A DNA stretch of 64,000 nucleotides from an uncultured Planctomycetales bacterium (GCA_964468745.1 CAYXVY010000201.1:4584-68583), one strand, 5' to 3'. Positions 2,134 to 46,309 are shown, counted from the first letter of the stretch. Program-made: numbers and translations. Notes: a model not told the origin generated them from the sequence alone.

Positions 2134-2191
2134 GTGGTGCTGTCCCCCACCCCCAATACGTTGCCGAGAATTCTACGGTATACTGCGGCCC

Positions 2192-3856
2192 ATGCAACGC
2201 CTCGTCGCACTTCTTCTAATTGCGAGTCTGTCGCGGTTCGGTTGGACGCAGGAGTCGGAGGAGCGCGGACAGTTCGTCATCCACATGGCAGGGAAGAAGG
2301 TCGGTACGGAGGAGTGGCGCGTCGAGAAGTTCCCCGAGGGAGGTACCGGCGTCTTCGCGAAGACGAAGCTAACGATCGAATCGAAGGGCAACGCGCTCGT
2401 CGCCGCGAACGACACCGCGCTCAAGCTCGACAAGGACGGGCGCGTCGCCACGTACGCGGGCATCGCGAAGGTGAACGATCTGGAGCAGGAGACGCGGATC
2501 GAGGTAAAGGCGGGCAAGGCCGCGATCGCCACGAAGTCCGGCGGCAACGAAGCGACGAAGGAGGCGAAACTCGGCGAGAAGTCGCACCTCCTCGACAACA
2601 ATTGCTTCATCCAGATCGGTCTCATCGCGCGAACGTACGACGCGAAAAAGGGACGTTTTTACCCCATCCGCATCTTCGCGATCGGGACGCTCGGCGAGCT
2701 CGACGCGTCGATCGATGATCGTGGCCCGATGCGGATGACGTCGGGCGACAAGTCCGTCGACGTGCGCCACATCATCGTCAACGTCGGCCGGCTCGGCATC
2801 AGCGTCTACCTGCGCGGTGACGGGCGTGTGGCGGCGGTCCGGAATCCGATGCAGGGCGTGACGGCCTACCTTGCGGAGTACGAAGGATGGGTCGTCGGCG
2901 GTTTGCGCGTTGAGATCAAGCGCCCGGACGGCGTTGTCGAGTCCGAAGTGACGTTTAAGAGCGGCGGCATCACGCTCTCCGGCTCGTTCACACGGCCGCG
3001 CGAGCTCAAACGCCTGGCGGCAGCCGTTGTGCTCGTCTCGGGTTCCGGCCCGCAGGATCGCGATGAAAACGTCGTCGGCGCGAAAGTCGAGGATGCGTTC
3101 CAGTGGAGCATCTTCAAGAGCACGGCGTATGAGCTCTCGGCCGCCGGGTTCGGCGTGCTTCGTTACGATGACCGCGGCGTGGCGAAGAGCGAAGGGGTAT
3201 TCGACCTGGCCAAACTGAGCGATTTCGTGGCGGATGCGGCGGCGGCCGTGGCGTACCTGCGGACTCGGGACGACGTCGATCCGGACCTCGTCGGCATCGT
3301 GGGCCACAGCGAGGGGGGGATTGTCGCGCCAATCGTCGCGAACAAAGACGCGCGCGTGCGCGCTCTATTCCTGATGGCCGGAACGGGCAGACCGCTTGAC
3401 GCCGTCATTCTCCAGCAGAGCGAGGCGGGGTTGCGCGAACAGGGCGTGTCCGAAGACGTCATCGCGCGCCAGCTGGAGAAGCAGCGCGCGCAATTCGCGG
3501 AGATCCGAACCTGCGAGAGCGACTGGATTACCATCGACGAGCGGGAGACGTTCATTGGGTGGCTGCGCGAACACTTCGAACACGATCCCGCCAGGGAGAT
3601 CGCCGGAGTGAAGGCGGCCGTCGTCGTCTTCCAGGGCATGAAGGACGCGCAGGTCTATCCGGAAAATGCGGAGTTGCTCGAGAAGGCGATGAAAGGGGCG
3701 GGGAAGGAGAATTTCGAGGTGCGACGCTATACCGACCTCGACCACCTGTTTATGAAGCACAAGGCGGGCATCGCGGACTACGCGGACGCGTCACGGCGCG
3801 TCGACGAGTCGTTTCTTCGCGAGCTTGCGACCGCGCTCGGGAAATGGCTGCGATGA
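2192..3856 (+). CDS. secreted alpha/beta-hydrolase (dienelactone hydrolase / S9-like)
   Basis: signal peptide MQRLVALLLIASL, nucleophile elbow GHSEGG, VVVFQGMKD motif; start chosen at the ATG that gives the signal peptide. Confidence 0.7.
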   Translation: MQRLVALLLIASLSRFGWTQESEERGQFVIHMAGKKVGTEEWRVEKFPEGGTGVFAKTKLTIESKGNALVAANDTALKLDKDGRVATYAGIAKVNDLEQETRIEVKAGKAAIATKSGGNEATKEAKLGEKSHLLDNNCFIQIGLIARTYDAKKGRFYPIRIFAIGTLGELDASIDDRGPMRMTSGDKSVDVRHIIVNVGRLGISVYLRGDGRVAAVRNPMQGVTAYLAEYEGWVVGGLRVEIKRPDGVVESEVTFKSGGITLSGSFTRPRELKRLAAAVVLVSGSGPQDRDENVVGAKVEDAFQWSIFKSTAYELSAAGFGVLRYDDRGVAKSEGVFDLAKLSDFVADAAAAVAYLRTRDDVDPDLVGIVGHSEGGIVAPIVANKDARVRALFLMAGTGRPLDAVILQQSEAGLREQGVSEDVIARQLEKQRAQFAEIRTCESDWITIDERETFIGWLREHFEHDPAREIAGVKAAVVVFQGMKDAQVYPENAELLEKAMKGAGKENFEVRRYTDLDHLFMKHKAGIADYADASRRVDESFLRELATALGKWLR

Positions 3857-5563: not shown

Positions 5564-7180
5564 TCAGGCTCTCTTCGCTGCCTCCCTAAGAATTGCGCCG
5601 GTCAGCCCGATCAGGAGTAGAAGCCCCGCGATTGCGGGGATCGCGCCGCCGGAATCGTTGTCGAGAACTGATCCTGAGCAGGCGCCGCCCTTATTCTTGC
5701 GGCCGCCCACCGATCCGAAGATCGAGCCCGGGAATGCATTCGGATCTTCGCGGATTCCGATGCCGTCATTCCCGCACCATTTGCGGTCGGGAGGCGTGAT
5801 CAGCATCTGCTCGGCGGTCGTGAGGCAGAGGTGCGTGGCGGGGGCGCCTACGAGCGCCGACGGCGCATCGACCGTGAGCCCGCTTGTCGCCGGCGTCACC
5901 GCGCCGACGGCGTAATCGTACGACCCATCGTCGGCGCCGACGTAGATCTTGTCCTTCACCACGTTTGGCCAGATGCCCGTGGCGCCGCTGAAGGGCCACG
6001 CGCCGCGCTGTGCCGGCAGGTCAGGGGCGCTGGGCGGTCCCGGGGGGCCTGTCACGAGCCTCGGAATCCACCACGCATGCAAAGTGAGGCCACCCTTGAA
6101 GCTGCCGTTCGCGCCGGAGGTCGCAAACAGGTAATTGCCGATCACCTTGATCTGGTGGAACACCGTCGGGAATCCCGCGGAGCCCGCCACAAAACCGGAG
6201 ATCACGGCGGTCGTCAGCGGGATCGTCGCCGAGTCGGCGTCATATACGTCGATCATGGCCCCGTAGACGGGGGGCGGCGACGAGAGCAGCACGGCTCTGC
6301 CGACGATGAGGTAGTTCCGTCCGGTGGCGATACCGGGGATGCCTGCGGGTGCCGTCCACGTCTGAATGCGATGCGAGTCGTCGTCGAGGCCGGCCAGCGG
6401 CATGCTCTTGATTCGCGTCCCCCACGGCACGCCCGTGGAGCCGGTGCCACCGATCTGCGTCGCGAGCGACGGGAACGGCGGTCCATACGTCGTCATGGAC
6501 GGCGTCGGATTCCACGGGTCCTGCGTGGCGCCCGCGAGAAGCACGTCCGTCTCGCGCAAGTCGATGCACCAGATCGCGTCCATCGTCGATCCACTCGGCG
6601 ACTTGTCCGTCCAGAACCAGCGATACGCGGGATTGACCGACGTAAAGGCGCCGCCGGTCGATCGCGTGAAGCCGGCGTCCGTGGGGGCGTATCCCGACCC
6701 GAGATGCACGAAGAGTTCGTTGATGTTGCTGACGTGTGGATCGAAGAACTCGTGGGTGCTGCCGCTGGGGTACGTTCCCACGACGAAGTAGTGCGGATTG
6801 AGAGGGGGCACATTCACGTACACGGCGCCCTGAAGCGAACCGGTCGTGCCCGTCACTGTCACGGGCGTGCCGTTCCCCGGCCCGATGCGGCGGACGCCGA
6901 CGCTCCCCGGCGAGATCGCCAGGACCACGGACGGGTTGATGTTGCTTGGGTGGCCGGCGAGTTCGTACATCGACTGTCCCGTGCTGGCCGAGCTCTCGAA
7001 CGTATCGATCCCTGCACCCGTGGTCCGGATGCGGCTCAAATACGCGAACCCCGGCCCGTGGTACGCGTACGAGTAGTCGCGAACGGTTGCTTGAGCCTGC
7101 GGGCTGTCTACGGCAATGCCCGCGAAAGCGACGACCGCGCTTGCGATGAACAGAAAACGCGACCCCACAAAACTGCGCAT
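5564..7180 (-). CDS. secreted protein, paralog A, MYXO-CTERM-like C-terminal sorting signal
   Basis: signal peptide MRSFVGSRFLFIASAVVAFAGIA; C-terminus GGACSGS...AIAGLLLLIGLTGAILREAAKRA (Cys, TM helix, basic tail); about 55% identical to the protein at 34397..35968. Confidence 0.75.
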   Translation of the reverse strand: MRSFVGSRFLFIASAVVAFAGIAVDSPQAQATVRDYSYAYHGPGFAYLSRIRTTGAGIDTFESSASTGQSMYELAGHPSNINPSVVLAISPGSVGVRRIGPGNGTPVTVTGTTGSLQGAVYVNVPPLNPHYFVVGTYPSGSTHEFFDPHVSNINELFVHLGSGYAPTDAGFTRSTGGAFTSVNPAYRWFWTDKSPSGSTMDAIWCIDLRETDVLLAGATQDPWNPTPSMTTYGPPFPSLATQIGGTGSTGVPWGTRIKSMPLAGLDDDSHRIQTWTAPAGIPGIATGRNYLIVGRAVLLSSPPPVYGAMIDVYDADSATIPLTTAVISGFVAGSAGFPTVFHQIKVIGNYLFATSGANGSFKGGLTLHAWWIPRLVTGPPGPPSAPDLPAQRGAWPFSGATGIWPNVVKDKIYVGADDGSYDYAVGAVTPATSGLTVDAPSALVGAPATHLCLTTAEQMLITPPDRKWCGNDGIGIREDPNAFPGSIFGSVGGRKNKGGACSGSVLDNDSGGAIPAIAGLLLLIGLTGAILREAAKRA

Positions 7181-7379
7181 TGGTGAGCCCCTCCAACGAT
7201 CGACCCTGTTGGCACCGCACCCGACATCGTCCTTGCATATCCATTTGCGAAAGGGCCCGCGACTTCTTGAGAAATCTTCACGACCAAAACAATTTCGATG
7301 CAATGTGTCACTTCGGAGTTGGCTTTTCTGTGCGGACGCTATGAGAATGAGGGCGCGCATGCACGAACTTGAAACGCGG

Positions 7380-8105
7380 ATGGGAGGATCGGCAGAGAAC
7401 TTCCCGAACACGACGTGGGCGTCCCTCTTTTCGATGACAGACGCGGCGTCGGCCGCGGCGCGACAGGAGGCGTTGAGCAAGATCGTCGGGCGGTATTGGC
7501 GGCCCGTCTACGCCTACGTGCGCGCCTCCGCGGGGAAGCCCGTCGAAGACGCGAAGGATCTCACGCAGGCGTTCTTCTGCCACATGATCGAGGACGACAT
7601 GTTCGCGAAGTACGTCCGCGAGCGCGGGCGGTTTCGCGACTACCTCAAAGGCGCCTTGCGCAATTTCCTCGCGGAATCGTACCGTTCAAGCTCGGCGCTG
7701 AAGCGCGGCGGCGGCCGTGCGGTCGTTCCGCTCGACACGGCCCAGATGGAAACGGAGGCGTTCGGCCGGCAGCTGCGGGAGGCGAATCCTGAGGAGATGT
7801 TCGACCGTCAGTGGGCGCGCGACCTGCTCATGGAGGCGCTGCAGGACCTGCGCCGCCAGCTCGAGGGCGAGGGACGGCAGGACCAGTGGCGCGTGTACGA
7901 GACGATCGAACTCTCAAGCGAGAGCCCCGTGCCGAGCTACGAGGACATCTCGAAGCGCTTCGCGATTTCGACGCACGAAGTGAAGAACGCGCTGTTCGCG
8001 GTGCGCGGCCGGCTGCACCGCATCCTCCGCGAGAAAATCTCGTCGATCGTGACGTCGGAGCGCGAGCTGCGCGACGAGATGAAACACCTGTTCGGGAGCA
8101 GCTGA
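7380..8105 (+). CDS. ECF-like sigma-70 family factor (kinase-associated type)
   Basis: conserved N-terminus MGGSAENFPNTTW shared by three paralogs; sigma region 2 YWRPVYAYV...DLTQAFF; region 4-like C-terminus. Confidence 0.7.
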   Translation: MGGSAENFPNTTWASLFSMTDAASAAARQEALSKIVGRYWRPVYAYVRASAGKPVEDAKDLTQAFFCHMIEDDMFAKYVRERGRFRDYLKGALRNFLAESYRSSSALKRGGGRAVVPLDTAQMETEAFGRQLREANPEEMFDRQWARDLLMEALQDLRRQLEGEGRQDQWRVYETIELSSESPVPSYEDISKRFAISTHEVKNALFAVRGRLHRILREKISSIVTSERELRDEMKHLFGSS

Positions 8106-8107
8106 CC

Positions 8108-10162
8108 GTGATCCCGGAGGATTTCGTCGAGCGTGCGAAGCGCGGACTTGTTGCGCAGTCGCACCAGCGCGTCGGCGAACTCGCCGTGTCGCGCGGCTGG
8201 ATCACGCGTGACGATCTCGCGAAGCACCTCCAGAGCGAGCCGTACGGCCGGGCGGAATCGCTGGTCGAGCGCGGCCTGCTCTCGCAGGATCAGCTGAAGG
8301 ACCTTTTCGAGGCCGTCGATCAGGGCGCTCCCACGGAACTGGGCGATCGATACGAGATCATCCGTCGCATCGGATCCGGCGCGACGTCCGACATCTTCGA
8401 GGCGCGCGACCGCGTGCTCGGACGCCACGTCGCGCTGAAGCGCATCCACGGTGACTACGTCGAGATCACCGAGCGCAGCCGGCGCGAGGCGGAGGCGACG
8501 GCGCGGTTGTCGCACCCGGGGATCGTCACGCTGCATGACTTCATCGAGCGCGATGGCCAGTTTCTGCTCGTCATGGAACTCGTCCGCGGGCACACGCTCA
8601 CGGAAGTTCTGCGAGAGAAGGTCGACTTTGCGCGGTCGGCCGCGATCCTCGAAAAAGTCGCGCGCGCCGTCCACTACGCCCACGAGCGTGGGATCATCCA
8701 CCGCGACCTCAAGCCGAACAACATCCTCATAGGGGAGGACGGCGAGCCGAAAGTCGCCGACTTCGGACTCGCGCGGCTGGTTGACTACAGCGATTTTACG
8801 AATGACGGCATCGTGCTCGGCACGCCGTTTTATATGGCGCCCGAGCAGGCGTCGGGGCAGAAGGACGCGATTTCGCCGCGCACGGACGTGTATGCGCTCG
8901 GCGCGGTGCTCTACGAAGTGCTCGCGGGCCATCCGCCGTTCTCCGACGTGGATGAGTTGCGCGCGATCGATTTGATCATCCAGGTCGAGCCGGTAGCGCC
9001 CAGCCAGCTGCGCAAGGGAGTGCCGCACGAGCTGGAAACGGTGATGCTTACGGCGATGCAGAAGGAGCCGGGCGCGCGATACGCGTCTGCGCTGGAATTC
9101 GCGGAGGAGCTGTCTCGCTGGCAGCGCGGGCAGCCCGTCACCGCGCAGGCGCCGAGTCCGCCGCCGCGCGTTTCGCGCGCCATCTGGCGTCGGCTTGGCG
9201 TGCACATGCCGTCGGCCGCGGCGCGTCGCATCGCTCGGGTGAAAGCGCGAGGCGCGGAGCCGGCGCGAATCCCGCAGCGTATCGAGCCGCTCGAGGCGAA
9301 CATGCGCGAGGCGATCGCGCTGCTCGAGGGGGCGCACGCGATCCTCGAGCGCGTCTCGCAGAGTTTCTACATGAAGGGCGCACGTGCGGACGACGGCGGG
9401 AGCCGCCTTGAAGCAGCCGAAGCGCTCATCGCGCAAGTGATAGCGCGGCTGCCGAATCTCGCGTCCGCATACGTGTTGCAGGGCCGCGTGCAGGGGATTC
9501 GCGGCGCGTTCGACGATGCGGAGGATTCCTTCCGCGATGCGCTCGTGCTGGATCCGGACCTCGCCACGGCCCACTACCAGCTCGGACGCCTGCTGGTCAT
9601 CCGTTCGATCCTCTCGATCGGCGGACCGCGGACCGACGTCCCGGAGGCGGCGCGGGAACTGGAGGTTGCGCGCGCGGGAGCGCCGACGTCGCCGCTTCAG
9701 AGGCAATTTGTCGACGCGCTGCTCGCGTTCGCTCACGGAAACAGGGACGAGGCGGTGCGGCAGGCGACGGTCGGGACCGAGCTGTTCGACGGCGAGCCCG
9801 GCGTCGAGGAATTTCATTGGCTGATCGGTGTGGCGGACGTGCGGCCGCCTGCGCGCCTCGCCGCGTTCGAACGGGCGCTCGACATCCGGCCGCGCTATCC
9901 GCTGGCGCAATTGTGTCGCGGCGTGCTGCGCGGTGCGATGGGAGACGTGAGGCGCGCGATGGCGGATGTCGAGTCAGCGCAGAAATTGAGTCCGTTGCTC
10001 GTCGAGGCGTGGTACTGCCGGGGAGTCCTTCGGGCGCAGGGGAAGGATGCGAAGGGAGCGCGTGCGGACTTCGCGCGGGCCCTCGAGCTCATGCGCGACG
10101 ACTCGCCGCACCGGGCTACGGTCGAGGAGCGTCTGGCGCAGTCGGGTGCGCGAGGGTCGTAA
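8108..10162 (+). CDS. Ser/Thr protein kinase with N-terminal tandem MshEN-like motifs and C-terminal TPR repeats
   Basis: GTG start 3 nt after the sigma stop; RVGELAVSRGWITRDDLAKHLQ and RAESLVERGLLSQDQLKDLF motifs; IIHRDLKPNNIL, DFGLAR, APE kinase motifs; TPR-like C-terminal region. Confidence 0.75.
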   Translation: MIPEDFVERAKRGLVAQSHQRVGELAVSRGWITRDDLAKHLQSEPYGRAESLVERGLLSQDQLKDLFEAVDQGAPTELGDRYEIIRRIGSGATSDIFEARDRVLGRHVALKRIHGDYVEITERSRREAEATARLSHPGIVTLHDFIERDGQFLLVMELVRGHTLTEVLREKVDFARSAAILEKVARAVHYAHERGIIHRDLKPNNILIGEDGEPKVADFGLARLVDYSDFTNDGIVLGTPFYMAPEQASGQKDAISPRTDVYALGAVLYEVLAGHPPFSDVDELRAIDLIIQVEPVAPSQLRKGVPHELETVMLTAMQKEPGARYASALEFAEELSRWQRGQPVTAQAPSPPPRVSRAIWRRLGVHMPSAAARRIARVKARGAEPARIPQRIEPLEANMREAIALLEGAHAILERVSQSFYMKGARADDGGSRLEAAEALIAQVIARLPNLASAYVLQGRVQGIRGAFDDAEDSFRDALVLDPDLATAHYQLGRLLVIRSILSIGGPRTDVPEAARELEVARAGAPTSPLQRQFVDALLAFAHGNRDEAVRQATVGTELFDGEPGVEEFHWLIGVADVRPPARLAAFERALDIRPRYPLAQLCRGVLRGAMGDVRRAMADVESAQKLSPLLVEAWYCRGVLRAQGKDAKGARADFARALELMRDDSPHRATVEERLAQSGARGS

Positions 10163-16620: not shown

Positions 16621-16989
16621 GTGGTGGACCCGGGGAGAATCGAACTCCCGTCCCAAGGTGAATCAACGGGGGCGTCTACGCGCGTAGTCCGCGGTTTATC
16701 TCGTCCGCTGGACGCCCACGGACGGGCTTCCAGCGGACCTTCCGGCTGTGAACCGTTCACCTAGACGCCCCGCCAGACGAGCGTTTCGGCATAGCCCACC
16801 TTTAGCGTCGATCGTGACCCACGGCTTGCGCCATGGCAGGCATGGTCACGAGGACGTCACGGACTAAGCCGCGAGAGCGTAATGCGGTTCAGCATTTGAA
16901 GTTGTGCTCGATGTTTAGCGAGGCCCACGAGCGTCCTCGGCGCGCAGCCTTCCATCTCCTCGACCCGGTCGATACCAGTTCGGGCCCAC
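16621..16989 (-). ncRNA. ssrA: tmRNA (transfer-messenger RNA)
   Basis: 5' GGGCCCGAACUGGUAUCGACCGGG matches the tmRNA 5' consensus; 3' T-arm GGGAGUUCGAUUCUCCC with acceptor CGGGUCCA; G3-U wobble in the acceptor stem; internal reading frame ends ...YALAA-UAG; smpB lies immediately upstream. Confidence 0.9.
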
Positions 16990-20508: not shown

Positions 20509-21804
20509 TTATGGGCGTAGTCTGGCGGCGGTGAGGGCGAGCATCGTCAGGGCGAGCGCCATGACGAGCGCGTTCCCCGCGTACATGCCGCGCGTCGCGT
20601 CGAACATCTGGCAGTCGTTGCCGCCGTCCTTGCTCTTCGGGCCGGCGACGGGGACGGGTACGATCAGGTCCGGCACTGTGTCCGCGTTGATGTCGAACGA
20701 AGTCCACGGGCTGAAGTTGCCGGCGCTGTCTTCGGCGCGGTACTTCCACGCCCAGTTGCCGACTGGCAGGGCGACGACGATCTGTGCCTGGCTGCCGCTG
20801 GCCAGGAAATTCGTGCTCTCGGTCGCATTGCCCGTAAATCCCATGGTCGTGATGGCGCGTTCGATGTGCCAGCGGATGGTGTCGCCATCGACGTCCGCGA
20901 CCATCGCCTTGAACCACACCTGCGAGCCCACGACGACTCCGCCCGTCGGAATCGGATTCACGCCGCCGCCGTCGAACTGCCCGGGGGCGCTCACGATGGG
21001 CGGCTGGTTTACCGGCGGCGAGGTGCCGCAGATGAAATCCGTGTCCGTCTCGGGGTTTGCGCCGTAGGAGACCGTCGTGCTGGTCGTCACACCGTCCGTG
21101 GCATAGACCGACCAGTGATAGAGCTCGCCGTCCGTGAGGCCGGTGAGCGTGATGGAGGCGGAGGTTGCCGTCACAGTAACGGAGTGCGTGGGCGTTCCCG
21201 TGAACGTCGTGCTCGTGGGCACGCATTCGACGTGCACCTTGTAGGTTACCGCGGAGACCGCAAATGTGGGATCCGCGGGCGTGCTTGTCGTGGTTGTCGA
21301 GGACGTAATGCTCTCGATGTCGCACGTGACGATGGCCTCAGCGCCTTCGCTGTAGCCGCCGGTTGCGATGACCGTCGTGGCGTCGGAGCGAAGCTGCACC
21401 AGGTTCTTCACAGTGATCGTCGTTGTCGTCGGCGGCGGTACCGCCGTCGTGGTCACCGGAGGAGTGGTCGTAGTCGTCGTGGGAGGCGTGGTTGTCGTCG
21501 TCGTGGGAGGTGTCGTCGTGCTCGTCGTCGGCGGTTTGGTCGTTGTCGATGCCGGCGGCGTCGTCGTGGTGGTCGTGGGAGGCGTCGTCGTATCCGACGC
21601 GGGCGGCTCGCTGGTCGTGGGTGCTGTGCTCGTGTCCGTCGTGCCGTCCGGAAGCGGCGCCGTCGCGGCGAGTGCGATCGCGATGCCGATCGCCAGGATC
21701 GGAATCACCAGGATGCGGGACTTCCGCAAAACGTTGCTCACAAGGCCCTCCTCGCAAAACCCCAGTCCAAGCAAAACTGCTGAACTAACCCCACCGCTCC
21801 CCAT
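20509..21804 (-). CDS. secreted Thr/Pro-rich FN3-like protein with MYXO-CTERM-like sorting signal
   Basis: long TTTPP low-complexity linker, FN3-like segments (GELYHWSVYATD, WAWKYRAEDSAGNFSPW), C-terminus GGNDCQM...ALVMALALTMLALTAARLRP; alternative GTG start at 21741 gives a better signal peptide. Confidence 0.65.
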   Translation of the reverse strand: MGSGGVSSAVLLGLGFCEEGLVSNVLRKSRILVIPILAIGIAIALAATAPLPDGTTDTSTAPTTSEPPASDTTTPPTTTTTTPPASTTTKPPTTSTTTPPTTTTTTPPTTTTTTPPVTTTAVPPPTTTTITVKNLVQLRSDATTVIATGGYSEGAEAIVTCDIESITSSTTTTSTPADPTFAVSAVTYKVHVECVPTSTTFTGTPTHSVTVTATSASITLTGLTDGELYHWSVYATDGVTTSTTVSYGANPETDTDFICGTSPPVNQPPIVSAPGQFDGGGVNPIPTGGVVVGSQVWFKAMVADVDGDTIRWHIERAITTMGFTGNATESTNFLASGSQAQIVVALPVGNWAWKYRAEDSAGNFSPWTSFDINADTVPDLIVPVPVAGPKSKDGGNDCQMFDATRGMYAGNALVMALALTMLALTAARLRP

Positions 21805-21877: not shown

Positions 21878-24721
21878 CTATTCCTGCTGTTTGGCCAGCA
21901 GGGTGTCGATCTGCGCCCTGAGGGCCTCTCGCAGGGGCCACTGGGGGGGCGCGACGTCGAGGCAGGTGCGGAAATCGTCGATGGCTCCCTTGAAGTCTCC
22001 CGTGGCCTGCCGGACCATGCCGCGATTGTGGTACGGCTCCGGGCGTTGCGGATACTGCCGCACCGACTCTTCGGCGTCGGCCATCGCGCCCGGAAAATCC
22101 CGTGTCGTGGCCTTGAGGGCCGTGCGGTTGACGCGCGCGGGGAAGAACCGCGGGTTGAGCTCGAGCGCACGATCGTAGTCCTGCATGGCGCCGACCGGAT
22201 CGTTGCGCTGGCGCTTGAGGTCGGCGCGGCGGCAGTGCGTCGCGGGATCCGTCGGATTGAGCAGGATCGCCTGCGAGTAGTCGTCGAGGGCACGCTTCCA
22301 TTGTCCGCGCGCCTCGTAGGTCTCGCCGCGCTTGAGGTGCGGCGCCGGATTCGCCGGCATGATGCCGATGGCGCTGGAGAAATCCTCGAGGGCGCCGTCG
22401 AGATCGCGGCGCGCCGCGCGCAGGGCGCCGCGATTGAAGTAAGCGAGCGCGCAATGGACGTTGATCCGGATCGCCTCGCCGTAGTCCGCCATCGCGGCGT
22501 CCTGCTCGCCGAGCGACTGCCGCGCGTTGCCTCTATTCACGTACGCGAGCGCGAGCTTGGGATCCTTCGCCATCGCGGCGTTGGCGTCGTCGATCGCGCC
22601 CTGCAGATCGCCCGATAGGGCTTTCGCGAAAGCCCTGTTGCAGAGCGCGCCGGCGTCGTCCGGCCGCATGCTCATGTACTGCTCGATGTCGGCGATGCCC
22701 CCCTTCGGATCGCCCGACTGGGCGCGCGCGAAGCCGCGGTTGTTGTAGGCCGGCGCGAAGCGCGGCGCGAGACGCAGCGTGGCGGTGTATTCCGCGATCG
22801 CGTCCGCCTGGCGGCCGCGGGCGATCCACGCGTTGCCGCGCAGGAATCGCGCGCGCGCGTAGTGGGGACGCAGCTTGAGCGCCTGTCCGAAATCGTCCGG
22901 CTCTCCGCGGGCCATGCCGCGCAGGAGCCAGAATTCCTCGCACCCGAGACGACCTGAGAACGTCTTGATGGCGTCATCGCTCAGCCGAACAACCTCGTCG
23001 CGCCGCAGCTGCGCGAGCGCGCGATACACTGCCAGCAGCGACCGGTCGGCATCCTCCGCGGCGTCGGGCCGCCTCGTGGCCGACGCGAGATGGCGCGCGG
23101 CGGTGTCCAAGTGCTGCATGACGCGTTCGTCGGGCGTGAGCGTGTCGTGCATCCGCTGGACGAACGCGTCCATCGCGCGCTCCTGGTACAGCCGTGCGAG
23201 ATGGTAGTGCGCCCCCGAATCGTTGGGGCTGCACCGTTCCGCCGCGCGGAGCGCCCGCTCCGCGGCGTCGAGGTCCCCGAGCATGTGACGCCCGATGCCC
23301 AGCGTGACCCACGCGTGCGAATCCTCGGCGCCTCCCCCCTCCCGCACGATCGCGTCCAGTTCGTCGCACGCTTTCTTGACGCGCGCCAGCTCGGCGAAAA
23401 TCGCGTCGCCTTCGACGTGGAACCACGGACGTGCACCGCGGATGACGGCTTCGATCGGCCGCACGAGTTGCTCCGCCCGCAGCCGGCGCTCGGCCTCGCC
23501 CGCGCGCGCGAAACTCCAGATCGAGGCGCCGATGGCGACGATCAGAACGGCGGCGGTGGCGGTGACCCGCCTGCGCACTGAGAACCAGCGGCTCAGCTTG
23601 CGGACCACGCCCGGCGCCTGCGCATAGACGGGCTCGCCGGCGAGGTAGCGCAGCAGCTCCTCTGAGAACTCCTCCGCGTTCACGTAGCGCCGGGACGGAA
23701 CCGGGTCGAGCGCCTTCAGGCACACCGTCTCAAGCTCCACCGAGACGCGCGGATTGAGATTGCGAGGGCGCTCCGGCGGACCTGCGAGGATCTTGTTGAA
23801 GACCTCGATAGGGTGGGCACCGGTATGAGGTGGCCGGCCGACCAGCATCTCGTAGAGGATCGCCCCGAGCGCATAGACGTCGGTTCGAGCGGTCACCTGG
23901 TCGATGCCGCTTTGTACCTGTTCCGGAGCCATGTACGGCGGCGTGCCGACCACGAATCCCGTCTCGGTCACGCGCGCCTCGTTTTCCTGCAGGAACGCCA
24001 GACTGAAATCGGCGACCTTCGGCTCACCCATCTCCGTGACGATGATGTTCGCGGGCTTGAGGTCGCGATGGATGATGCCGTTCTGATGCGCGTAGTGAAC
24101 CGCGCGCGAGACTGTCGCGAGGAGGCGGATCATGGACGGAAGCGCCCGTCGCGCCTGCGGCATCAACTCCGTCAGCGTCTTGCCCTTCACCAACTCCATC
24201 ACGAGGTACATGTGGCCGTCCTCCTCGCACGCGTCGTGCAGCGTGACGAGGTTCGGGTGCGCGAGGCGCGCCGCGGCCGTGCACTCGCGATAGAAGCGCT
24301 GACGCATCGTCTCAAAACTCTTGGCGCGCGGGCGCAGGACCTTGAGCGCGACCTCGCGGTGGAGCTCGCGGTCGAGGGCGCGGTAGACGATGGCCACGCC
24401 CCCTTCGCCGAGCCGCTCGATGATCTCGTAGCGGCGGAATCTCGGAAGCTCCAGCTTGGCGGTGTCGTAGAGCGCCTCCGACACCTCCGGCGCCAGCCCG
24501 CGCGGGACGGCGCCGTTCAAGTACTGGCGATGGCGCTCCTCGCGGCGCAGCTCTTCAAGCGCTTTGTCGTCGATCAGTCCGCGCTCGCGCATGAGATCCG
24601 CCAGGAGGACCGATTCGCCGCGGGCGAGCCGCTCCTGCTGCTCGCGAAGGCACTCTTGCACGGCCTCCTGGGGGACAATGCCGCGTTCGACGGCCAGACG
24701 CCCGACTATCGTGTCTGCCAC
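21878..24721 (-). CDS. Ser/Thr protein kinase, MshEN-like N-terminus, TM helix, periplasmic TPR repeats
   Basis: GRLAVERGIVPQEAVQECL and LADLMRERGLIDDKALEEL motifs; IIHRDLKPANII, DFSLA, APE kinase motifs; TM helix VTATAAVLIVAIGASIW; many TPR repeats. Confidence 0.8.
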   Translation of the reverse strand: MADTIVGRLAVERGIVPQEAVQECLREQQERLARGESVLLADLMRERGLIDDKALEELRREERHRQYLNGAVPRGLAPEVSEALYDTAKLELPRFRRYEIIERLGEGGVAIVYRALDRELHREVALKVLRPRAKSFETMRQRFYRECTAAARLAHPNLVTLHDACEEDGHMYLVMELVKGKTLTELMPQARRALPSMIRLLATVSRAVHYAHQNGIIHRDLKPANIIVTEMGEPKVADFSLAFLQENEARVTETGFVVGTPPYMAPEQVQSGIDQVTARTDVYALGAILYEMLVGRPPHTGAHPIEVFNKILAGPPERPRNLNPRVSVELETVCLKALDPVPSRRYVNAEEFSEELLRYLAGEPVYAQAPGVVRKLSRWFSVRRRVTATAAVLIVAIGASIWSFARAGEAERRLRAEQLVRPIEAVIRGARPWFHVEGDAIFAELARVKKACDELDAIVREGGGAEDSHAWVTLGIGRHMLGDLDAAERALRAAERCSPNDSGAHYHLARLYQERAMDAFVQRMHDTLTPDERVMQHLDTAARHLASATRRPDAAEDADRSLLAVYRALAQLRRDEVVRLSDDAIKTFSGRLGCEEFWLLRGMARGEPDDFGQALKLRPHYARARFLRGNAWIARGRQADAIAEYTATLRLAPRFAPAYNNRGFARAQSGDPKGGIADIEQYMSMRPDDAGALCNRAFAKALSGDLQGAIDDANAAMAKDPKLALAYVNRGNARQSLGEQDAAMADYGEAIRINVHCALAYFNRGALRAARRDLDGALEDFSSAIGIMPANPAPHLKRGETYEARGQWKRALDDYSQAILLNPTDPATHCRRADLKRQRNDPVGAMQDYDRALELNPRFFPARVNRTALKATTRDFPGAMADAEESVRQYPQRPEPYHNRGMVRQATGDFKGAIDDFRTCLDVAPPQWPLREALRAQIDTLLAKQQE

Positions 24722-24757: not shown

Positions 24758-25477
24758 CTACTCCAGCCACGAAAAGAGTCCGCGCAGCTCGTCGGCGAGT
24801 TCTTCGGCGGACCGCACGGTCTCGCGCACCTGCGCCTTGAGAGCCTCCCTGAACGCCTCGCGCGCGACACGGAGATAATTGCTGACGCTGTCCTCCGTGA
24901 TTCCCAGTTGTTTCGCGACGGCCGTGTACGTAGCCTGTCCGTCCCCCTCGAGATCGTAGAGGCGGAAGACCTCGAAGCACTTCATGCGATCCTGCTTGTG
25001 AAACGTCTCGCGGACCGACTCCACGGCCGCGCGGATCACCGCGGCCCGCCATTCGCGCTCGAACACCTCTTCGGGACCGAATTCGCGGGCGGCCGCGAGG
25101 TTCTCCTCCGCGCCCAGCTCCGCCTGGTCCAGCGTCAGGTGCGCGATCTTCCCGCCCCTCCGCACCGCGTGATCGATCCGCCGCTGGTCGGCGACAAAGT
25201 TGCGGACGCTTGTCTTCAGGAAGTTGCGGAAGCGTCCGCGCTCCTCGTCCGCCTTCTCGAGAAAGCCGGATTCCATCAGATGGAGAAAGAAGGCCTGCGT
25301 CAGGTCCATCGACGCGGTCGCGTCGTGATTGCAGGAGGTGCGCACGTACCAGTACACGGGCTTCCAGTAGCGTTCGATGAGCGTGTTGAGTGCGGTCTGG
25401 GAGTCCTTCTCCTCGCCGCGCGCGTGCGAGACGAGGGTCCACAGCGTCGATGGAAACGCTACCGGTGCGGTGTCCAC
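24758..25477 (-). CDS. ECF-like sigma-70 family factor (paralog 2)
   Basis: MDTAPVAFPSTLW N-terminus, YWKPVYWYV..DLTQAFF region 2, HTH-like region 4. Confidence 0.7.
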   Translation of the reverse strand: MDTAPVAFPSTLWTLVSHARGEEKDSQTALNTLIERYWKPVYWYVRTSCNHDATASMDLTQAFFLHLMESGFLEKADEERGRFRNFLKTSVRNFVADQRRIDHAVRRGGKIAHLTLDQAELGAEENLAAAREFGPEEVFEREWRAAVIRAAVESVRETFHKQDRMKCFEVFRLYDLEGDGQATYTAVAKQLGITEDSVSNYLRVAREAFREALKAQVRETVRSAEELADELRGLFSWLE

Positions 25478-30246: not shown

Positions 30247-30377
30247 CGTGGTCTGCCTCCAGCAACTGAACTGGTAGCACAGTATCAAACGACGTGCCAC
30301 TGTTATGGAATGCAAGGCGTTTGAGTGCAGCATGTTGCGTGGTGGCATACACGCGGCCGTGAAGAAACACCGATACT

Positions 30378-32534
<2,157 letters not shown>

Positions 32535-32632: not shown

Positions 32633-33472
32633 TTAGGCGCTGCGCTCGTGGAGGCGGTACCGGTCGAGCAGCCCCATTTTCGAGCTGTAATCCGAGGGCA
32701 GCGATTGGAGGATGCGCGCAACCTCGTCTGCCATCTTGCCTGCGGTCGGGTAGCTCGTCCTCGCGAAATTTTGGAAGTCGGCGTCGGCAACCGGGTGAAC
32801 GCGTCGCAGCGGCGGGATCTCGCCAGCCGCGATCAGCGCGAACGCCTTGCCGCTCAGCAGCGACAGGAAGAGGAGGTGCAGCGCGTCGATGTCCGTGCCC
32901 TTGTCCGCCACAGGGGGTGCCGTGGCGGGGTCAAAATGGCGCCTGAGCTGGCCGACGGCGAAATCGACGATGTGCGGATGCCCGTTCGAGGAGAGGATCA
33001 CGTTCGGCGGCGCGATGCCGCCGTGGACGATGTCGCGCTCGTGGCTGAACTCGATCGCCCGTGCGACTTCGTAAAACGTCTGCATCGCGGGAAGCGGCTC
33101 GAGCGTCGTCTTTTCAAGCGGGTCTCCATGCACGTAGTCGCGCACCGTGAAGTAGCCGCCGCCGACCGTGGAGAGCTTGTGATACGTGACGATCACCGGA
33201 TGCTGCAGTGCGGCAAGCGGTTTCAAATGGGCGCAGACGGCCGCGACGGTTGAAGGATCGTTCGTGCGGCCCAGCACGCGCAGGACGAGGGTGTGAGGCC
33301 GCGTGTTGTCGGTCGCCTCCATCACGCCGGGTCCGAGCGTGCGCAGGAGGGTGTACTTGCCGAACTGGTTGGCAGCGCCCTCCGGGGTGCGTTTGGCAGG
33401 CCCGGAAGGCTTCTCCGGCCCCGCCAGCATGCGCTGGAGTTTCGCGACGTTTATGTCCGACAGGTCCGCCAT
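32633..33472 (-). CDS. kinase-fold pseudokinase translationally coupled to the ECF-like sigma
   Basis: kinase-like fold with Gly-loop LGPGVMEA, VAIK replaced by LVLRV, catalytic loop HGGIAPPNV (no Asp or Lys), DFG replaced by DFA; ATGA overlap with the sigma stop at 33472. Confidence 0.65.
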   Translation of the reverse strand: MADLSDINVAKLQRMLAGPEKPSGPAKRTPEGAANQFGKYTLLRTLGPGVMEATDNTRPHTLVLRVLGRTNDPSTVAAVCAHLKPLAALQHPVIVTYHKLSTVGGGYFTVRDYVHGDPLEKTTLEPLPAMQTFYEVARAIEFSHERDIVHGGIAPPNVILSSNGHPHIVDFAVGQLRRHFDPATAPPVADKGTDIDALHLLFLSLLSGKAFALIAAGEIPPLRRVHPVADADFQNFARTSYPTAGKMADEVARILQSLPSDYSSKMGLLDRYRLHERSA

Positions 33473-34194
33473 CAGGGCTTCGGCTCGCCGAGGAGATCCG
33501 ACATCTCCTCGCGATACTCCTCCTCCGAAAGAGTGTACTCCTTCACGCGGTCGCTGATGTGTTCGCGCAGCCGGCGGCGCGCGTCGGCCAGATAGTTCGT
33601 GACGTCCCAGATCTTCAGCCCGAGCTCTTTCGCGACGGACTCGTACGAGACTACGGCGTCGGCCGACAGCTGGTAGCGTTCGAACACTTTCATGTACATC
33701 TCTTTGCCTTCCGCCGCATACGAGCGCCGCAGCGCGTCGATGGCGTGCGTGAAGATGGTCCGCACCCACTCCGAACGATAGAGGTCCTCGGGCGTCCCAT
33801 CCGCACTCACCGACACTTCGCCGTCCTCGTCCGCGGCCATGTCGAGCGACACGATCTTCTGTCCTCCGCCTCGTCGCTGTGCCTGCTGTTCGGCGTATTG
33901 ATTGCGGAGGTAATTCTCGAGGGCGGTGCGAAGGAGGGCGTGGAAACGGCCGCGTTCGCGGTCGGCGCCGGCGAGGAATTCCTTCTCAATGATGTTGGTG
34001 ATGAACGACTGGGTGAGGTCTTTGGCGTCCTCGTTCGAGCGGTTCCACTTGCGTCGGACGTAGACGTAGATCGGACGCCAGTAGAGGGCGAGGAGCCGCT
34101 GGAGAGCCTCGCGGCGTTCAGGACCCTCGAAACGCCCAGCTCGAATGATGGCGGACCAAGGGGTGGCAGGGAACCGCTCGGGGCCCTCTCCCAT
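33472..34194 (-). CDS. ECF-like sigma-70 family factor (paralog 3)
   Basis: MGEGPERFPATPW N-terminus, YWRPIYVYV...DLTQSF region 2; start placed by alignment to the two paralogs. Confidence 0.7.
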   Translation of the reverse strand: MGEGPERFPATPWSAIIRAGRFEGPERREALQRLLALYWRPIYVYVRRKWNRSNEDAKDLTQSFITNIIEKEFLAGADRERGRFHALLRTALENYLRNQYAEQQAQRRGGGQKIVSLDMAADEDGEVSVSADGTPEDLYRSEWVRTIFTHAIDALRRSYAAEGKEMYMKVFERYQLSADAVVSYESVAKELGLKIWDVTNYLADARRRLREHISDRVKEYTLSEEEYREEMSDLLGEPKP

Positions 34195-34396
34195 CTCCGT
34201 ATCCTGTTGAGGCTGCCGGTCGGTCACGTGTCCTCCGTGTCCCATTATACACACGCCGTGCGAGTGGCGTTCAGGCCATAAAGTGCTGCCCGGAATTTTT
34301 GAAATTTGATTAAATATGGCTGGTCCGGGCGGTGTAGAGCATACGGACACGGGAATCACGGGAATCTGGTGCGGTGGGCTCTCTAGCTTGGAGGTT

Positions 34397-35968
34397 ATGG
34401 TGATGCGCATCCCTAAGTTTCCAGGGCGGCTGGCGTTCAGCGCGGCGCTCGTGGCTGTCTTCCTTGTGATGGGGGTCAGCAGACCTGAGGCTCAGGCCAC
34501 GGTCATTGACTACTCATATGCGTATCATGGCCCCGGCTGGTCGTACGTCACGCGCATCTGGACCAACGGGGTCGACATCGACACGTATCGCAGTTCCGCA
34601 GGGACATCGGGGACGATAGCGCATCTTGACGCGCATCCGAGCATCTTCAACCCGAGCGCCATCTACGGTATCGTCCCGGGGACGGTCGGCGTGAAGCGCA
34701 TCGGCCCCGGCAGCGGCGTCCCCGTCAATACGTACCTCACGACGGGCTCCGCGCAGGGCGCGTGCTACGTCAACTCGCCGCCGCTCAACCCGCACTACTT
34801 CGTGGTCGGCAAGTACGCGTCCGGCGGGTCGCTCGAATTCTTCGACGTCCATAATCAGAACGTTTCCGAGATCTTCGTCCATATCCCCACGGGTCACGAG
34901 CCGCAGGACTGCGCGTTCGCGAAGGCGACGACGACAGCCTTCAGCCCGGCCAACCCGGCCTTCCGCTGGTTCTGGATCGATAAGGCCCCCACGGGCTCGA
35001 CGGCGGAGACCTTGTACTACCTTGACCTGCGCACTGCCGACGTGCAGCTCTCAGGCGGCGCCGTCCAGAATCCGTGGAACCCGACGCCCCAGATCTCGAC
35101 CTACGGCCCCCCGTTCTCGAGCCTGGGGACGCAGCTCGGCGGCGTCGGCCCTAGCGGCGTATCGTGGACCGGCCGCTTCATCACCATGACGGGTATCAGT
35201 GGCCTCGATGACGACAGCCATCGCCTTCAGACGTGGGTTAACGCGGCCGGCCGGCCGTTCCTGATCCACGCCCGCAACGTCCTCATCTCGCCCCTTCCTC
35301 CGGTCTACGGCGACGACGTCACCGTGTACGCCGCCGATGCGGCCTCGGGCGTCCTGCCCACGACCTTCACTACGACGGTGACGACATCCGGCATCCCGAC
35401 GGTGGCCCACGACATCAAGGTCATCGGGAACTTCCTGTTCGTAACGGCGGGAACGAACGGTTCGGCGAAGGGCGGCGACGGGGTTTACTCGTACTTCATC
35501 AATCCCGGCGGCACGCTCACAGCGCGCGGATCGCTTCCGTTCCTCGGTGCGACGGGCATCTGGTCGAACTTCGTCAACGACAGGCTGTACATCGGCGCCG
35601 ACGACAGCAGCGCCAGTTACGGGGTGTGCCCCGTCGATCCGCTGACGAGCGGCCTGACGACCGACACGGGCACGAATCCGCTTCTGGGCCTCTCGACACA
35701 CCTCGCGCTCTCCATCGCGGAGCAGCAGCTCATCACGCCTCCCGATCGCAAGTGGGTCGGCAACGACGGCATCGGCGTCCGCGAGGACTCGAGCTCGTTC
35801 CCCGGCACCGCCTTCGGCAATCCAAACGGCAGGTCGCGCAACGGCGGCGCATGCTCCGGCGCGCTCCTCGGTGAAGAGAACGGCGGCGGCCTCGGCGCTC
35901 TTGCCTTCATGGTCCTGCTCGTCGGCTTGGCCGGCGCTACCCTGCGTGAAGCAGGCAGAAAGACCTAG
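34397..35968 (+). CDS. secreted protein, paralog B, MYXO-CTERM-like sorting signal
   Basis: signal peptide MRIPKFPGRLAFSAALVAVFLVMG; C-terminus GGACSGALLGEENGGG...FMVLLVGLAGATLREAGRKT; collinear similarity to 5564..7180. Confidence 0.75.
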   Translation: MVMRIPKFPGRLAFSAALVAVFLVMGVSRPEAQATVIDYSYAYHGPGWSYVTRIWTNGVDIDTYRSSAGTSGTIAHLDAHPSIFNPSAIYGIVPGTVGVKRIGPGSGVPVNTYLTTGSAQGACYVNSPPLNPHYFVVGKYASGGSLEFFDVHNQNVSEIFVHIPTGHEPQDCAFAKATTTAFSPANPAFRWFWIDKAPTGSTAETLYYLDLRTADVQLSGGAVQNPWNPTPQISTYGPPFSSLGTQLGGVGPSGVSWTGRFITMTGISGLDDDSHRLQTWVNAAGRPFLIHARNVLISPLPPVYGDDVTVYAADAASGVLPTTFTTTVTTSGIPTVAHDIKVIGNFLFVTAGTNGSAKGGDGVYSYFINPGGTLTARGSLPFLGATGIWSNFVNDRLYIGADDSSASYGVCPVDPLTSGLTTDTGTNPLLGLSTHLALSIAEQQLITPPDRKWVGNDGIGVREDSSSFPGTAFGNPNGRSRNGGACSGALLGEENGGGLGALAFMVLLVGLAGATLREAGRKT

Positions 35969-36863: not shown

Positions 36864-38078
36864 ATGCCGCTGCATCTGGCGCTGTTGCTGATCCTGGCCC
36901 AGTCGGGCGACGGGCTCGGCGATACAAAGGTCTTCCGCGAGTACGACTTTTCCGTGCGCCCGCCCGCCGCTTGGAAGGCCGTCCTTCTCCTGCCGCCCGC
37001 GTTCGTCCGCTTCGAGGCGCCCGAGGGAGGGCCCGTCGGCGCGCAGGTGGTTCTGCGTCAGTACGAGCCCCAATTCCCAATGACGTTGAAGGTGTTCTTC
37101 GACGAAATCGTCTCGCCTCACTTCAAAGGTGAGCTCGCGGATCTCAAGATCACGACCGACGAGAACCTGACCGTATCCGGCCACCCGTGCCGTCTCGTCG
37201 TCGCCCAGGGGAAGAAGAAGGACGGGGCGGCGCACGCAATCGTCACCGCGATCGCGGCGCGCGGCTACAAGGAGTTCTTCTTTGTCGATGGGGCTTGCGC
37301 GGGCAAGGACGTCGACACGCTGATTGCGCTCATCCGCAAGGTCGTGGGCAGCTTGACGCTCGGGCTTCCCGATTCCAAGGAGGAGGCCGACTGCATCGCG
37401 AAGCTGCCCGCACTGGGCTTCCGCGCGGAAGTGACGGGCGATCGCTGGTACCGCGTGACCGTTAAAGGGCAGAAGTTTGGCCACCAGCACGTGGTCATCC
37501 GCGAAGGGAAGCTGAACGGTCGTCCGGCCTACGAGTGGGACGTCGATCAGGCGCTCAAATACAGCGACGGCGGCACGTCCATCCGTTCGCGTGGCGCGTT
37601 CACGCCGGACGGTCTCTCGCAGAAGTGCGATTACGAGTTCGTCGTCGAGCAGAAGGACCAACCGAAAAAAACCTACCTCGAGACGGTCGAGATCGCCAAC
37701 GGCGAGGCGACCGTCACCCGCACGATTGCGGGCGTGACCGAACTCAAGAAGGTCCTGCGCCTTTCCGAGAAGACGTACCTCACCGACGCGGCGGATGTCG
37801 TGCGCGGGCTGGCTGCGCTCGCCGGGAAGGGGACGTGGGGGCTGCGCGTGCTGAACCCCTTCAGCGACGTCGCGCAGATCGAGGAAATCGAGTGCGGGCC
37901 GATGGAGCGCATCAAGATCGAGGACGAGTCCGTCGACGGCGCGGTGATGCTGGTGAAAGTCGCGCGGCGACGTCAGACGGCGTACTACGTAGATTCGCAG
38001 GGCGCCCTGCTGAGCGTGGGCGCCGCCAATCACGCATTCAGGGTCTATCGTTGCACGAAGGACGAAGCGCTGAAGTAG
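36864..38078 (+). CDS. hypothetical secreted protein
   Basis: signal peptide MPLHLALLLILAQS; no recognisable domain. Confidence 0.45.
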   Translation: MPLHLALLLILAQSGDGLGDTKVFREYDFSVRPPAAWKAVLLLPPAFVRFEAPEGGPVGAQVVLRQYEPQFPMTLKVFFDEIVSPHFKGELADLKITTDENLTVSGHPCRLVVAQGKKKDGAAHAIVTAIAARGYKEFFFVDGACAGKDVDTLIALIRKVVGSLTLGLPDSKEEADCIAKLPALGFRAEVTGDRWYRVTVKGQKFGHQHVVIREGKLNGRPAYEWDVDQALKYSDGGTSIRSRGAFTPDGLSQKCDYEFVVEQKDQPKKTYLETVEIANGEATVTRTIAGVTELKKVLRLSEKTYLTDAADVVRGLAALAGKGTWGLRVLNPFSDVAQIEEIECGPMERIKIEDESVDGAVMLVKVARRRQTAYYVDSQGALLSVGAANHAFRVYRCTKDEALK

Positions 38079-41225: not shown

Positions 41226-41247
41226 TTCTGGTAGTCTCCTCCTTTCC

Positions 41248-43083
<1,836 letters not shown>

Positions 43084-46301: not shown

Positions 46302-46309
46302 CGCGTCTC

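Follow-up and report, generated by a model that had tools for sequence, protein, structure and literature searches.

Kinase-linked ECF sigma factors and a rare family of predicted exported β-propellers in an uncultured Planctomycetales bacterium

Extracytoplasmic function (ECF) sigma factors that are linked to protein kinases are numerous in Planctomycetota, in Acidobacteria-rich soils and in related habitats. The planctomycetal kinase-associated groups ECF59–ECF62 and ECF217 are reportedly to be credited to Jogler 2012 and Casas-Pastor 2021, and, to our knowledge, the only kinase-linked ECF pairs that have been studied are EcfP/PknT and EcfK/PknS, both of which belong to ECF43. Here, we describe a 64,000-nucleotide stretch of DNA, analysed as a whole and referred to below as the window, from an uncultured Planctomycetales bacterium (GCA_964468745.1 CAYXVY010000201.1:4584-68583). 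It carries three related sigma factor genes (sigma-1, sigma-2 and sigma-3), each followed by a gene for a Ser/Thr kinase or a kinase-like protein. Two of these pairs are divergent from genes for paralogous proteins, A and B, and the third is followed by the gene for a protein, C, with a similar C-terminal tail. On balance, we think it probable that these are kinase-linked ECF pairs in which the kinase controls the sigma factor, and that in a small clade of Planctomycetota the neighbouring protein, a predicted β-propeller, is the local transcriptional output.

Direct sigma-factor phosphorylation has been demonstrated for the two ECF43 pairs, and the hallmark of this group is the loss of the acidic DAED motif from region 2.2, where uncharged residues and a conserved Thr (QTTA or STTA) are found instead (PMC13147305, PMC8999054). 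Kinase-linked groups other than ECF43 retain a DAED-like motif and may work differently (PMC8999054). The kinase-associated groups that have no anti-sigma factor are ECF43, the planctomycetal ECF59–62, ECF217, ECF267 and ECF283 (PMC7826278), and TPR and FGE-sulfatase domains are frequent on the kinases of Planctomycetota (PMC11032199). In the papers that we consulted on the planctomycetal kinase-linked ECF groups, we found no conserved β-propeller or Cys-tail neighbour and no pseudokinase partner.

Three sigma–kinase pairs

The window has a GC content of ≈65%, and many of its long open reading frames are therefore spurious. Real genes were chosen by their codon-position GC, and the start codons were then refined. 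The three sigma factors (239–241 residues) are 34–37% identical to each other, and all begin with the M-x6-FP-x-T-x-W signature that a preliminary description of the window, made from the sequence alone, had pointed out in these ≈240-residue paralogs. The ECF model TIGR02937 (cut-off 42.9 bits) matched sigma-2 and sigma-3 above the cut-off (63.2 and 45.6 bits) and sigma-1 0.9 bit below it (42.0 bits); sigma-2 also matched Sigma70_r2 above the cut-off. These model matches identify all three as putative sigma-70-type factors of the ECF class (group 4).

JGI metagenome contigs were scanned with an alignment of five sigma factors of the family. At least 587 stretches matched, and 80 loci were kept. 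A kinase reading frame directly follows the sigma gene in 52 of the 64 loci that have at least 300 bp of downstream sequence; at L016, L028 and L049, the kinase gene is upstream of the sigma gene or divergent from it. Taken with the three of three pairs in the window, this makes the units kinase-associated ECF units, and a sigma factor with a Ser/Thr kinase is a conserved, abundant and already known kind of signalling pair. The N-terminal F-P-x-T is strongly conserved in the aligned sigma factors of the family (F in 82, P in 76 and T in all of 83 sequences). The first position of the acidic motif in region 2.2 is D in 82 of 87 members, in a sample that is biased towards this residue, since the retrieval pattern included the motif.

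Kinase-1 and kinase-2 gave strong Pkinase matches and TPR repeats in Pfam, and their catalytic motifs are intact (VALK/HRDLKPNN/DFG and VALK/HRDLKPAN/DFS, respectively). The third kinase-like protein, encoded after sigma-3, has LVLR/HGGIAPPN/DFA in place of VAIK/HRD/DFG; with the catalytic Lys and Asp both missing, it is a pseudokinase, as the preliminary description had called it. Every complete kinase in the metagenome sigma loci has intact K/HRD/N/D[FW]G motifs, and many of these kinases are short (≈275 residues) and soluble, with DWG for DFG. No transmembrane segment was predicted in kinase-1, which has C-terminal TPR repeats, or in the pseudokinase, which is likewise soluble. A single transmembrane helix is present in kinase-2, whose long TPR array is predicted to be periplasmic.

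Some other features of the kinases were observed. Sixteen of the 80 metagenome loci (L023, L026, L027, L035, L039, L045, L051, L053 and eight more) form a subtype in which the sigma factor is accompanied by a soluble DWG kinase of ≈275 residues and a Gly-rich, predicted multi-pass membrane protein of ≈120 residues. Both active kinases of the window have an extension of ≈80–95 residues ahead of the kinase domain (8108–8350 and 24480–24721) with repeats of the form RxGELAVxRGxIxxxxL. Residues 17–42 of kinase-1 weakly match the model of an MshE-related motif that binds cyclic di-GMP (19.7 bits; cut-off 38), and a GGDEF cyclase gene is located at 226–2133.

In region 2.2, sigma-1 and sigma-3 retain the acidic sequence E-D-A-K-D. 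Sigma-2, with TASMD, has partly lost the acidic residues and is the sole deviator among the three. The ECF43 hallmark is absent, and the label "ECF43-like" that had been given to the pairs does not apply. The retention of a DAED-like motif in kinase-linked groups other than ECF43 would fit the sigma family described here. Since the acidic region 2.2 is kept, the family must use another control point, for which two Thr residues are candidates, the invariant one in the N-terminal FPxT and that in DLTQ.

The propeller family and its genomic contexts

Proteins A (538 residues) and B (521 residues) are collinear paralogs, as had been described, with 53–55% identity (≈53% end to end; A residues 8–537, B residues 9–520; E = 0). 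No match was found for the family in Pfam or NCBIfam, nor to the sequence of any PDB chain. An AlphaFold model of A, calculated from 16 sequences, is all-beta (predicted local distance difference test 74.7, predicted template modelling score 0.75), with a predicted fold of the seven-bladed β-propeller type. All full-length members of the family have an N-terminal signal-like helix. A and B are thus modelled as exported β-propellers with a sorting-type tail, a description from which a catalytic function is not inferable. Membership of A and B in a PF10282-like lactonase family was considered and rejected, as there was no Pfam, NCBIfam or PDB sequence match and nothing to indicate a lactonase active site.

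The family is new, very rare and unannotated. An exhaustive HMMER profile search of 1.84 billion cluster representatives returned 15 proteins of the family at E ≤ 1e-3, and the named homologs are "hypothetical proteins" from metagenome-assembled genomes of Planctomycetes or Planctomycetota. When a word-indexed search for homologs was made with A, and again with a 16-sequence alignment, only A and one protein from a metagenome-assembled genome were returned. A search of genome contigs yielded the 4-kb contig of P0002 and no other, and a first scan of metagenomes with an alignment of the propellers gave no match. B is filed under a cluster whose representative is a 46-residue fragment and was therefore missed by the homolog searches, so that the counts of family size are slight underestimates. 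Gene A is carried by the samples SRR15166930 and SRR15166932.

The tail of A consists of GGACSGS, a transmembrane helix and LREAAKRA. In all members, a Gly-rich motif is followed by one Cys, 8–16 residues, the transmembrane helix and Arg or Lys. When 20 tails were aligned, the Cys was nearly invariant and the helix was followed by Arg or Lys at the end, the tripartite design (Cys, transmembrane helix, basic end) of MYXO-CTERM signals. Four such Cys-containing signals (MYXO-, JDVT-, Synerg- and CGP-CTERM) are processed by CPBP (Rce1-like) proteases, and MYXO-CTERM has been reported solely in Myxococcia and Polyangia (Haft, 10.1101/2023.06.07.544157). Neither the whole proteins A, B and C nor their isolated tails matched any C-terminal sorting model at E ≤ 10. 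Eight of the 20 tails matched TIGR03901.2 weakly, the best with scores of 18.4, 15.3 and 12.2 bits (cut-off 20). The name MYXO-CTERM, which the preliminary description had applied to these proteins, therefore goes too far: the model finds nothing in A, B and C, and even the best family tail stays below its cut-off. Through this tail, A and B would be anchored at the cell surface.

A gene for a CPBP/Rce1-like intramembrane protease lies at ≈46303–47107 on the plus strand, and its counterpart is found at the syntenic site of the related locus L004 (13214–14020). This protease may possibly be the processing enzyme for the Cys tails. We keep a role as myxosortase as a lead only, since the protein fell far below the cut-off of every Mrt model (for instance, Mrt_core 25.6 versus 100 bits) and showed generic CPBP similarity only.

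Seven propeller contexts, the window included, were informative. (In L001/L007 and L009, the sequence starts with the propeller gene itself, so that its upstream side is not represented, and P0004 has no contig.) In L004 (GCA_964464755.1), the gene for propeller P0010 is divergent from that of a sigma factor of 249 residues, 68% identical to sigma-3. This is followed by a pseudokinase of 290 residues (LALR/HGGLRPRN/DTG; 42% identical to that of the window) and then by a GAF sigma-54 activator. Downstream of the propeller are a 415-residue protein, Amidase_3, HEAT_2, DUF366, LPG_synthase_TM, an FGE-sulfatase kinase, a small protein, the CPBP protease and a PQQ propeller, and the gene order in the window from 30.4 to 50 kb is essentially the same. 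In L008, the gene for propeller P0011 is divergent from a sigma gene whose product is 64% identical to sigma-3 and within which the contig ends. L006 has a different, co-directional arrangement of a 243-residue sigma factor of the family (FQSTLW; 30–40% identical to the others), an active FGE-sulfatase kinase of 1002 residues and the propeller. A canonical ECF sigma factor of 195 residues, with no kinase, is encoded immediately upstream of the propeller in L005, and the 3′ end of a secretin gene is found there in L010. The propeller gene adjoins a sigma gene of the family in five of the seven contexts, and an ECF-type sigma gene of any kind in six. Within the sigma family, three separate lineages are therefore represented in the window, L004, L008 and L006, with the genes in two arrangements, and the link of A and B to a sigma unit recurs beyond the window, in divergent orientation in L004 and L008 and co-directionally in L006.

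Viewed from the sigma factors, the association is different. None of the 80 metagenome sigma loci has a homolog of A or B, even at E ≤ 10 with the filters off, and a single one, L031, has any neighbour with a Cys tail. Since the propeller is mostly found beside sigma genes, the dependence is one-sided, and the "fixed partnership" of the preliminary description does not hold on the sigma side. The L031 protein is encoded just upstream of the family sigma gene, at 689–2413 (+). It resembles a glucose/sorbosone-dehydrogenase-like propeller with PKD-repeat-like features and ends with poly-Gly, Cys and RRARCSR.

The propeller family falls into two subfamilies, one with A, B, P0002 and P0004 and the other with P0010, P0011, P0018 and P0009, which are 26–30% identical to each other. 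At the conserved sigma-3 position, the sigma factors of the different genomes are 64–68% identical and the propellers 28–29%; the propeller therefore evolves fast, like many surface proteins. Sigma-1 and sigma-3 are 36% identical, whereas A and B are 55% identical, so that the duplication that gave A and B must be much younger than the split of the sigma factors. P0002 is located at a B-type position, followed by Amidase_3, HEAT_2 and DUF366. B is therefore ancestral, and A was placed beside a different, pre-existing sigma–kinase pair. Such a placement, reconstructed here from sequence comparisons, would argue for a functional reason for the adjacency.

The second module differs from the other two. 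Sigma-2 and kinase-2 are separated by 36 nt, and kinase-2 and C by 136 nt. The tail of C (GGNDC, a transmembrane helix and RLRP) is of the same type as that of A and B, and this is all that they have in common, as no similarity was detectable when the sequences were compared. C, to which the preliminary description had assigned FN3, had no match in Pfam, FN3 included, and a structure model from three sequences (pLDDT 39) was discarded. Only two homologs of C were found, both on short contigs and both with a tail of Cys, helix and KLRP. In one of these (L091), the sequence ahead of the gene encodes the C-terminal end of a TPR protein, which by eye is close to the end of kinase-2. A close relative thus shares the order from kinase-2 to C, and this lends weak independent support to the module. 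The threefold repetition that had been proposed is thus present at the level of the sigma–kinase(-like) pairs, of which there are three, while the paralogous secreted protein occurs at two loci only, C being unrelated to A and B.

Role of the propeller and control of the sigma factors

We propose that the Hanks-type kinase encoded just after each sigma factor would control it, most likely through phosphorylation, and that A and B would be transcribed by the neighbouring sigma factor, making the propeller its local output. The ancestral B lies opposite sigma-3, whose degenerated pseudokinase partner could act by binding only, and the younger A opposite sigma-1, which would be under the control of a TPR kinase that is soluble and active. 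In the third pair, sigma-2 goes with a membrane-bound TPR kinase, and an unrelated protein with the same type of tail follows. The propeller as the output of the sigma factor is the simplest model, because ECF sigma factors usually control neighbouring genes.

Alternatively, the propeller might pass a signal to the kinase, as its sensor, ligand or co-receptor, and thus be an input of the module. An exported partner might be bound by kinase-2, which has a transmembrane helix and a large TPR domain with a predicted periplasmic location, and in L006 the propeller gene comes after that of a long FGE-sulfatase kinase. On Planctomycetota kinases, FGE-sulfatase domains are reported to be mostly on the periplasmic side (PMC11032199); for L006, the side of the domain is taken from those other kinases. 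Kinase-1 and the pseudokinase, however, have no transmembrane segment and would make no contact with exported A and B, and the sole membrane kinase among the three modules, kinase-2, is paired with the unrelated C. Since A and B are exported and their partners stay in the cytoplasm, a direct relation of ligand and sensor is improbable. We regard an input role as very unlikely, and the earlier suggestion that the secreted protein might be the ligand of the kinase as a poorer fit than its alternative, a member of the sigma regulon.

A more serious objection to the propeller as sigma-controlled output is that the adjacency might have no regulatory meaning, the propeller being where it is by synteny or chance in genomes packed with sigma–kinase pairs. 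The window alone contains five kinase-like genes, three sigma genes of the family, one primary-type sigma gene and two sigma-54 activators. B, L004 and L008 constitute one syntenic block (enhancer-binding protein, which is the GAF-GAF sigma-54 activator, pseudokinase and sigma factor on one side; propeller, 404-residue protein, Amidase_3, HEAT_2 and DUF366 on the other). These three contexts therefore count as one evolutionary event, leaving about three independent associations. The absence of the propeller from all 80 metagenome sigma loci likewise speaks for coincidence, as does the lack of a shared promoter motif. Against it, an ECF-type sigma gene adjoins the propeller in six of the seven contexts, with three sigma lineages of the family, two orientations and one canonical ECF sigma factor, and the younger A is again divergent from a sigma–kinase pair, across a spacer of ≈200 bp. 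We therefore consider an adjacency without regulatory meaning unlikely.

The divergent spacers were compared for shared promoter elements. Both spacers belong to the four intergenic regions of lowest GC in the window; the remaining two are just as low, so that the unusual AT-richness noted earlier is real without being peculiar to these spacers. A search of the divergent regions for sigma-54 promoters was negative, though two sigma-54 activators are encoded nearby, and no -35/-10 dyad was shared by three or more of the four spacers compared. Comparison of the intergenic regions with blastn-short gave no significant match (the B/sigma-3 spacer and L004 share the 10-nt sequence TTGATTAAAT, which is not significant), and MAFFT alignments of the divergent spacers contained no convincing conserved block. 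In the sigma/propeller spacer of L004 (≈3340–3440), a run of N lies between near-duplicate sequences (20 nt, 95%), probably an assembly artefact, which limits the promoter comparison.

Several of these results weigh against the propeller being the output of a kinase-controlled sigma factor. Besides the reduction of three contexts to one block and the 80 sigma loci without a propeller, L005 and L010 have the propeller beside a canonical ECF sigma factor and a secretin, respectively, and no sigma factor of the family. There is no shared promoter-like motif among the divergent spacers, so that transcriptional control is not demonstrated. D-A-K-D is kept in sigma-1 and sigma-3, so that a phospho-switch of the ECF43 type is not obviously applicable, and the sigma family is placed among the kinase-linked ECF factors in general terms, by its features. 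Weighing these points, we still favour the propeller as the local output. What the preliminary description observed is for the most part correct, and its interpretation is partly supported: it rightly recognised a signalling unit in which the surface-protein partner is conserved, and overstated the case with "threefold", "fixed", ECF43 and MYXO-CTERM.

The pseudokinase might also be something other than the relic of a decayed pair, namely an anti-sigma factor or chaperone-like binder of sigma-3 that acts independently of phosphorylation and represents a new regulatory variant. In two genomes, the pseudokinase has lost the catalytic Lys, the Asp of HRD and DFG (LVLR/HGG/DFA and LALR/HGG/DTG), and yet the two proteins share 42% identity and are still coupled in translation to a sigma factor conserved at 68%. 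With its acidic region 2.2 intact, sigma-3 should not need phosphorylation to bind core RNA polymerase. Together, the conserved catalytic loss, the tight coupling and the acidic region 2.2 suggest control of sigma-3 by binding. On the other hand, there are two examples only, which are orthologs, binding is a conjecture, and an active kinase acting in trans could still regulate sigma-3. We put this forward tentatively, as a quite possible variant.

Whether the whole amounts to an undescribed surface-display system of a small Planctomycetota clade, hard-wired to kinase-linked ECF sigma factors and including one unit with a conserved pseudokinase, we hold to be rather doubtful. If it were true, the sigma–pseudokinase unit would be an undescribed, phosphorylation-independent form of control of an ECF sigma factor. 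A natural pair of sigma factor and pseudokinase, present in two genomes, could reveal how a kinase fold regulates a sigma factor without catalysis, and each sigma factor has a defined candidate target gene. The tail, if it is processed, would extend MYXO-CTERM-like signals beyond Myxococcota. In practice, it is a limitation that none of the members comes from a cultivated organism.

Neighbouring genes and comparison with described systems

The features of the three modules and their immediate neighbours are collected in Table 1. The L004 counterpart of the GAF-GAF activator is 53% identical to it. When nine module proteins were compared with the window by tblastn, two extra kinases were found (43105–45834 and 61372–62346) and no additional copies of A, B or the sigma factors.

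Table 1. Positions of the module genes and adjoining features, numbered from the first nucleotide of the window.
Feature	Position	Strand	Description
Protein A	5564..7180	-	538 aa; signal peptide (AQA cleavage motif), predicted β-propeller, Gly-rich linker, Cys tail
Divergent spacer A/sigma-1	7181..7379		199 bp, 53.8% GC; both promoters presumed inside
Sigma-1	7380..8105	+	ECF-type, 241 aa; N-terminal FPNTTW; region 2.2 EDAKDLTQ
Kinase-1	8108..10162	+	684 aa; GTG start 2 nt past sigma-1 stop; kinase domain residues 82–325
Protein C	20509..21741	-	≈410 aa; signal/anchor helix, Thr/Pro-rich linker, all-beta region, Cys tail
Kinase-2	21878..24721	-	947 aa; kinase domain, transmembrane helix (residues 386–404), long TPR array
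Sigma-2	24758..25477	-	239 aa; N-terminal FPSTLW; region 2.2 TASMDLTQ
GAF-GAF sigma-54 activator	30378..32534	-	directly downstream of pseudokinase
Pseudokinase	32633..33472	-	279 aa, soluble, kinase fold only; start overlaps sigma-3 stop (TGATG)
Sigma-3	33472..34194	-	240 aa; N-terminal FPATPW
Divergent spacer sigma-3/B	34195..34402		208 bp, 55.3% GC
Protein B	34403..35968	+	521 aa; paralog of A, with architecture and tail as in A
404-aa protein, no family match	36864..38078	+	homologs (28–30% identity) downstream of propeller in L004 and L008

The first of these extra kinases, encoded on the plus strand, is the fourth kinase of the window and has a C-terminal FGE-sulfatase domain and no adjacent sigma gene. 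Its kinase domain is 66% identical to that of the syntenic gene in L004, and the same type of FGE-sulfatase domain is found on the kinase of the L006 operon of sigma factor, kinase and propeller. Just before it, at 40963–43083 (+), is the gene for the second sigma-54 enhancer-binding protein, which is of the FHA-GAF type. Between modules 2 and 3, at 28984–30348 (-), a sigma-70 factor of 454 residues is encoded, with regions 1.2, 2, 3 and 4 (primary or group 2), adjoined by a HEAT/VWA protein gene (27337–28920). A tmRNA gene (tag peptide AEPHYALAA) adjoins smpB (16622–16987 and 17152–17625, both on the minus strand); this ordinary housekeeping pair partly fills an apparent gene gap of 1.4 kb.

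What is new here is modest: a kinase-linked ECF pair combined with a very rare propeller family that has a MYXO-CTERM-like tail, together with the sigma–pseudokinase pair. For the propellers, the likeness to described proteins is one of fold alone. The seven-bladed propellers of the lactonase/YVTN type (6nau, 6-phosphogluconolactonase; 6igb, PpgL; 3vgz, YncE) as well as the archaeal S-layer YVTN propeller 1l0q and BT1954 (8bn0) resemble A in this respect, with 8–13% sequence identity.

The tail resembles the MYXO-CTERM/myxosortase system in that an exported protein carries at its end a Gly-rich motif with Cys, then a transmembrane helix and then basic residues, and in that a gene for a CPBP/Rce1-like protease is present in the syntenic block of B. 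It differs in its scores below the cut-off, in the spacing of 12–16 residues, acidic ones among them, between Cys and helix, and in the origin of its homologs in Planctomycetota.

Like EcfP–PknT of Vibrio parahaemolyticus and EcfK–PknS of Xanthomonas citri, the units described here consist of an ECF-type sigma factor beside a Hanks-type kinase, with no anti-sigma gene. In the ECF43 pairs, too, the C-terminal part of the kinase is sensor-like, and the sigma factor controls nearby envelope or surface functions, as is proposed here. Unlike in ECF43, the sigma factors here have ≈240 residues, a conserved N-terminal FPxT and a C-terminal extension, D-A-K-D is kept, and one partner is a pseudokinase. 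By their described features, the planctomycetal groups ECF59–ECF62 and ECF217 are alike in phylum, in the microsynteny of sigma factor and kinase, in the DAED-like motif, and in the TPR or FGE-sulfatase domains of their kinases.

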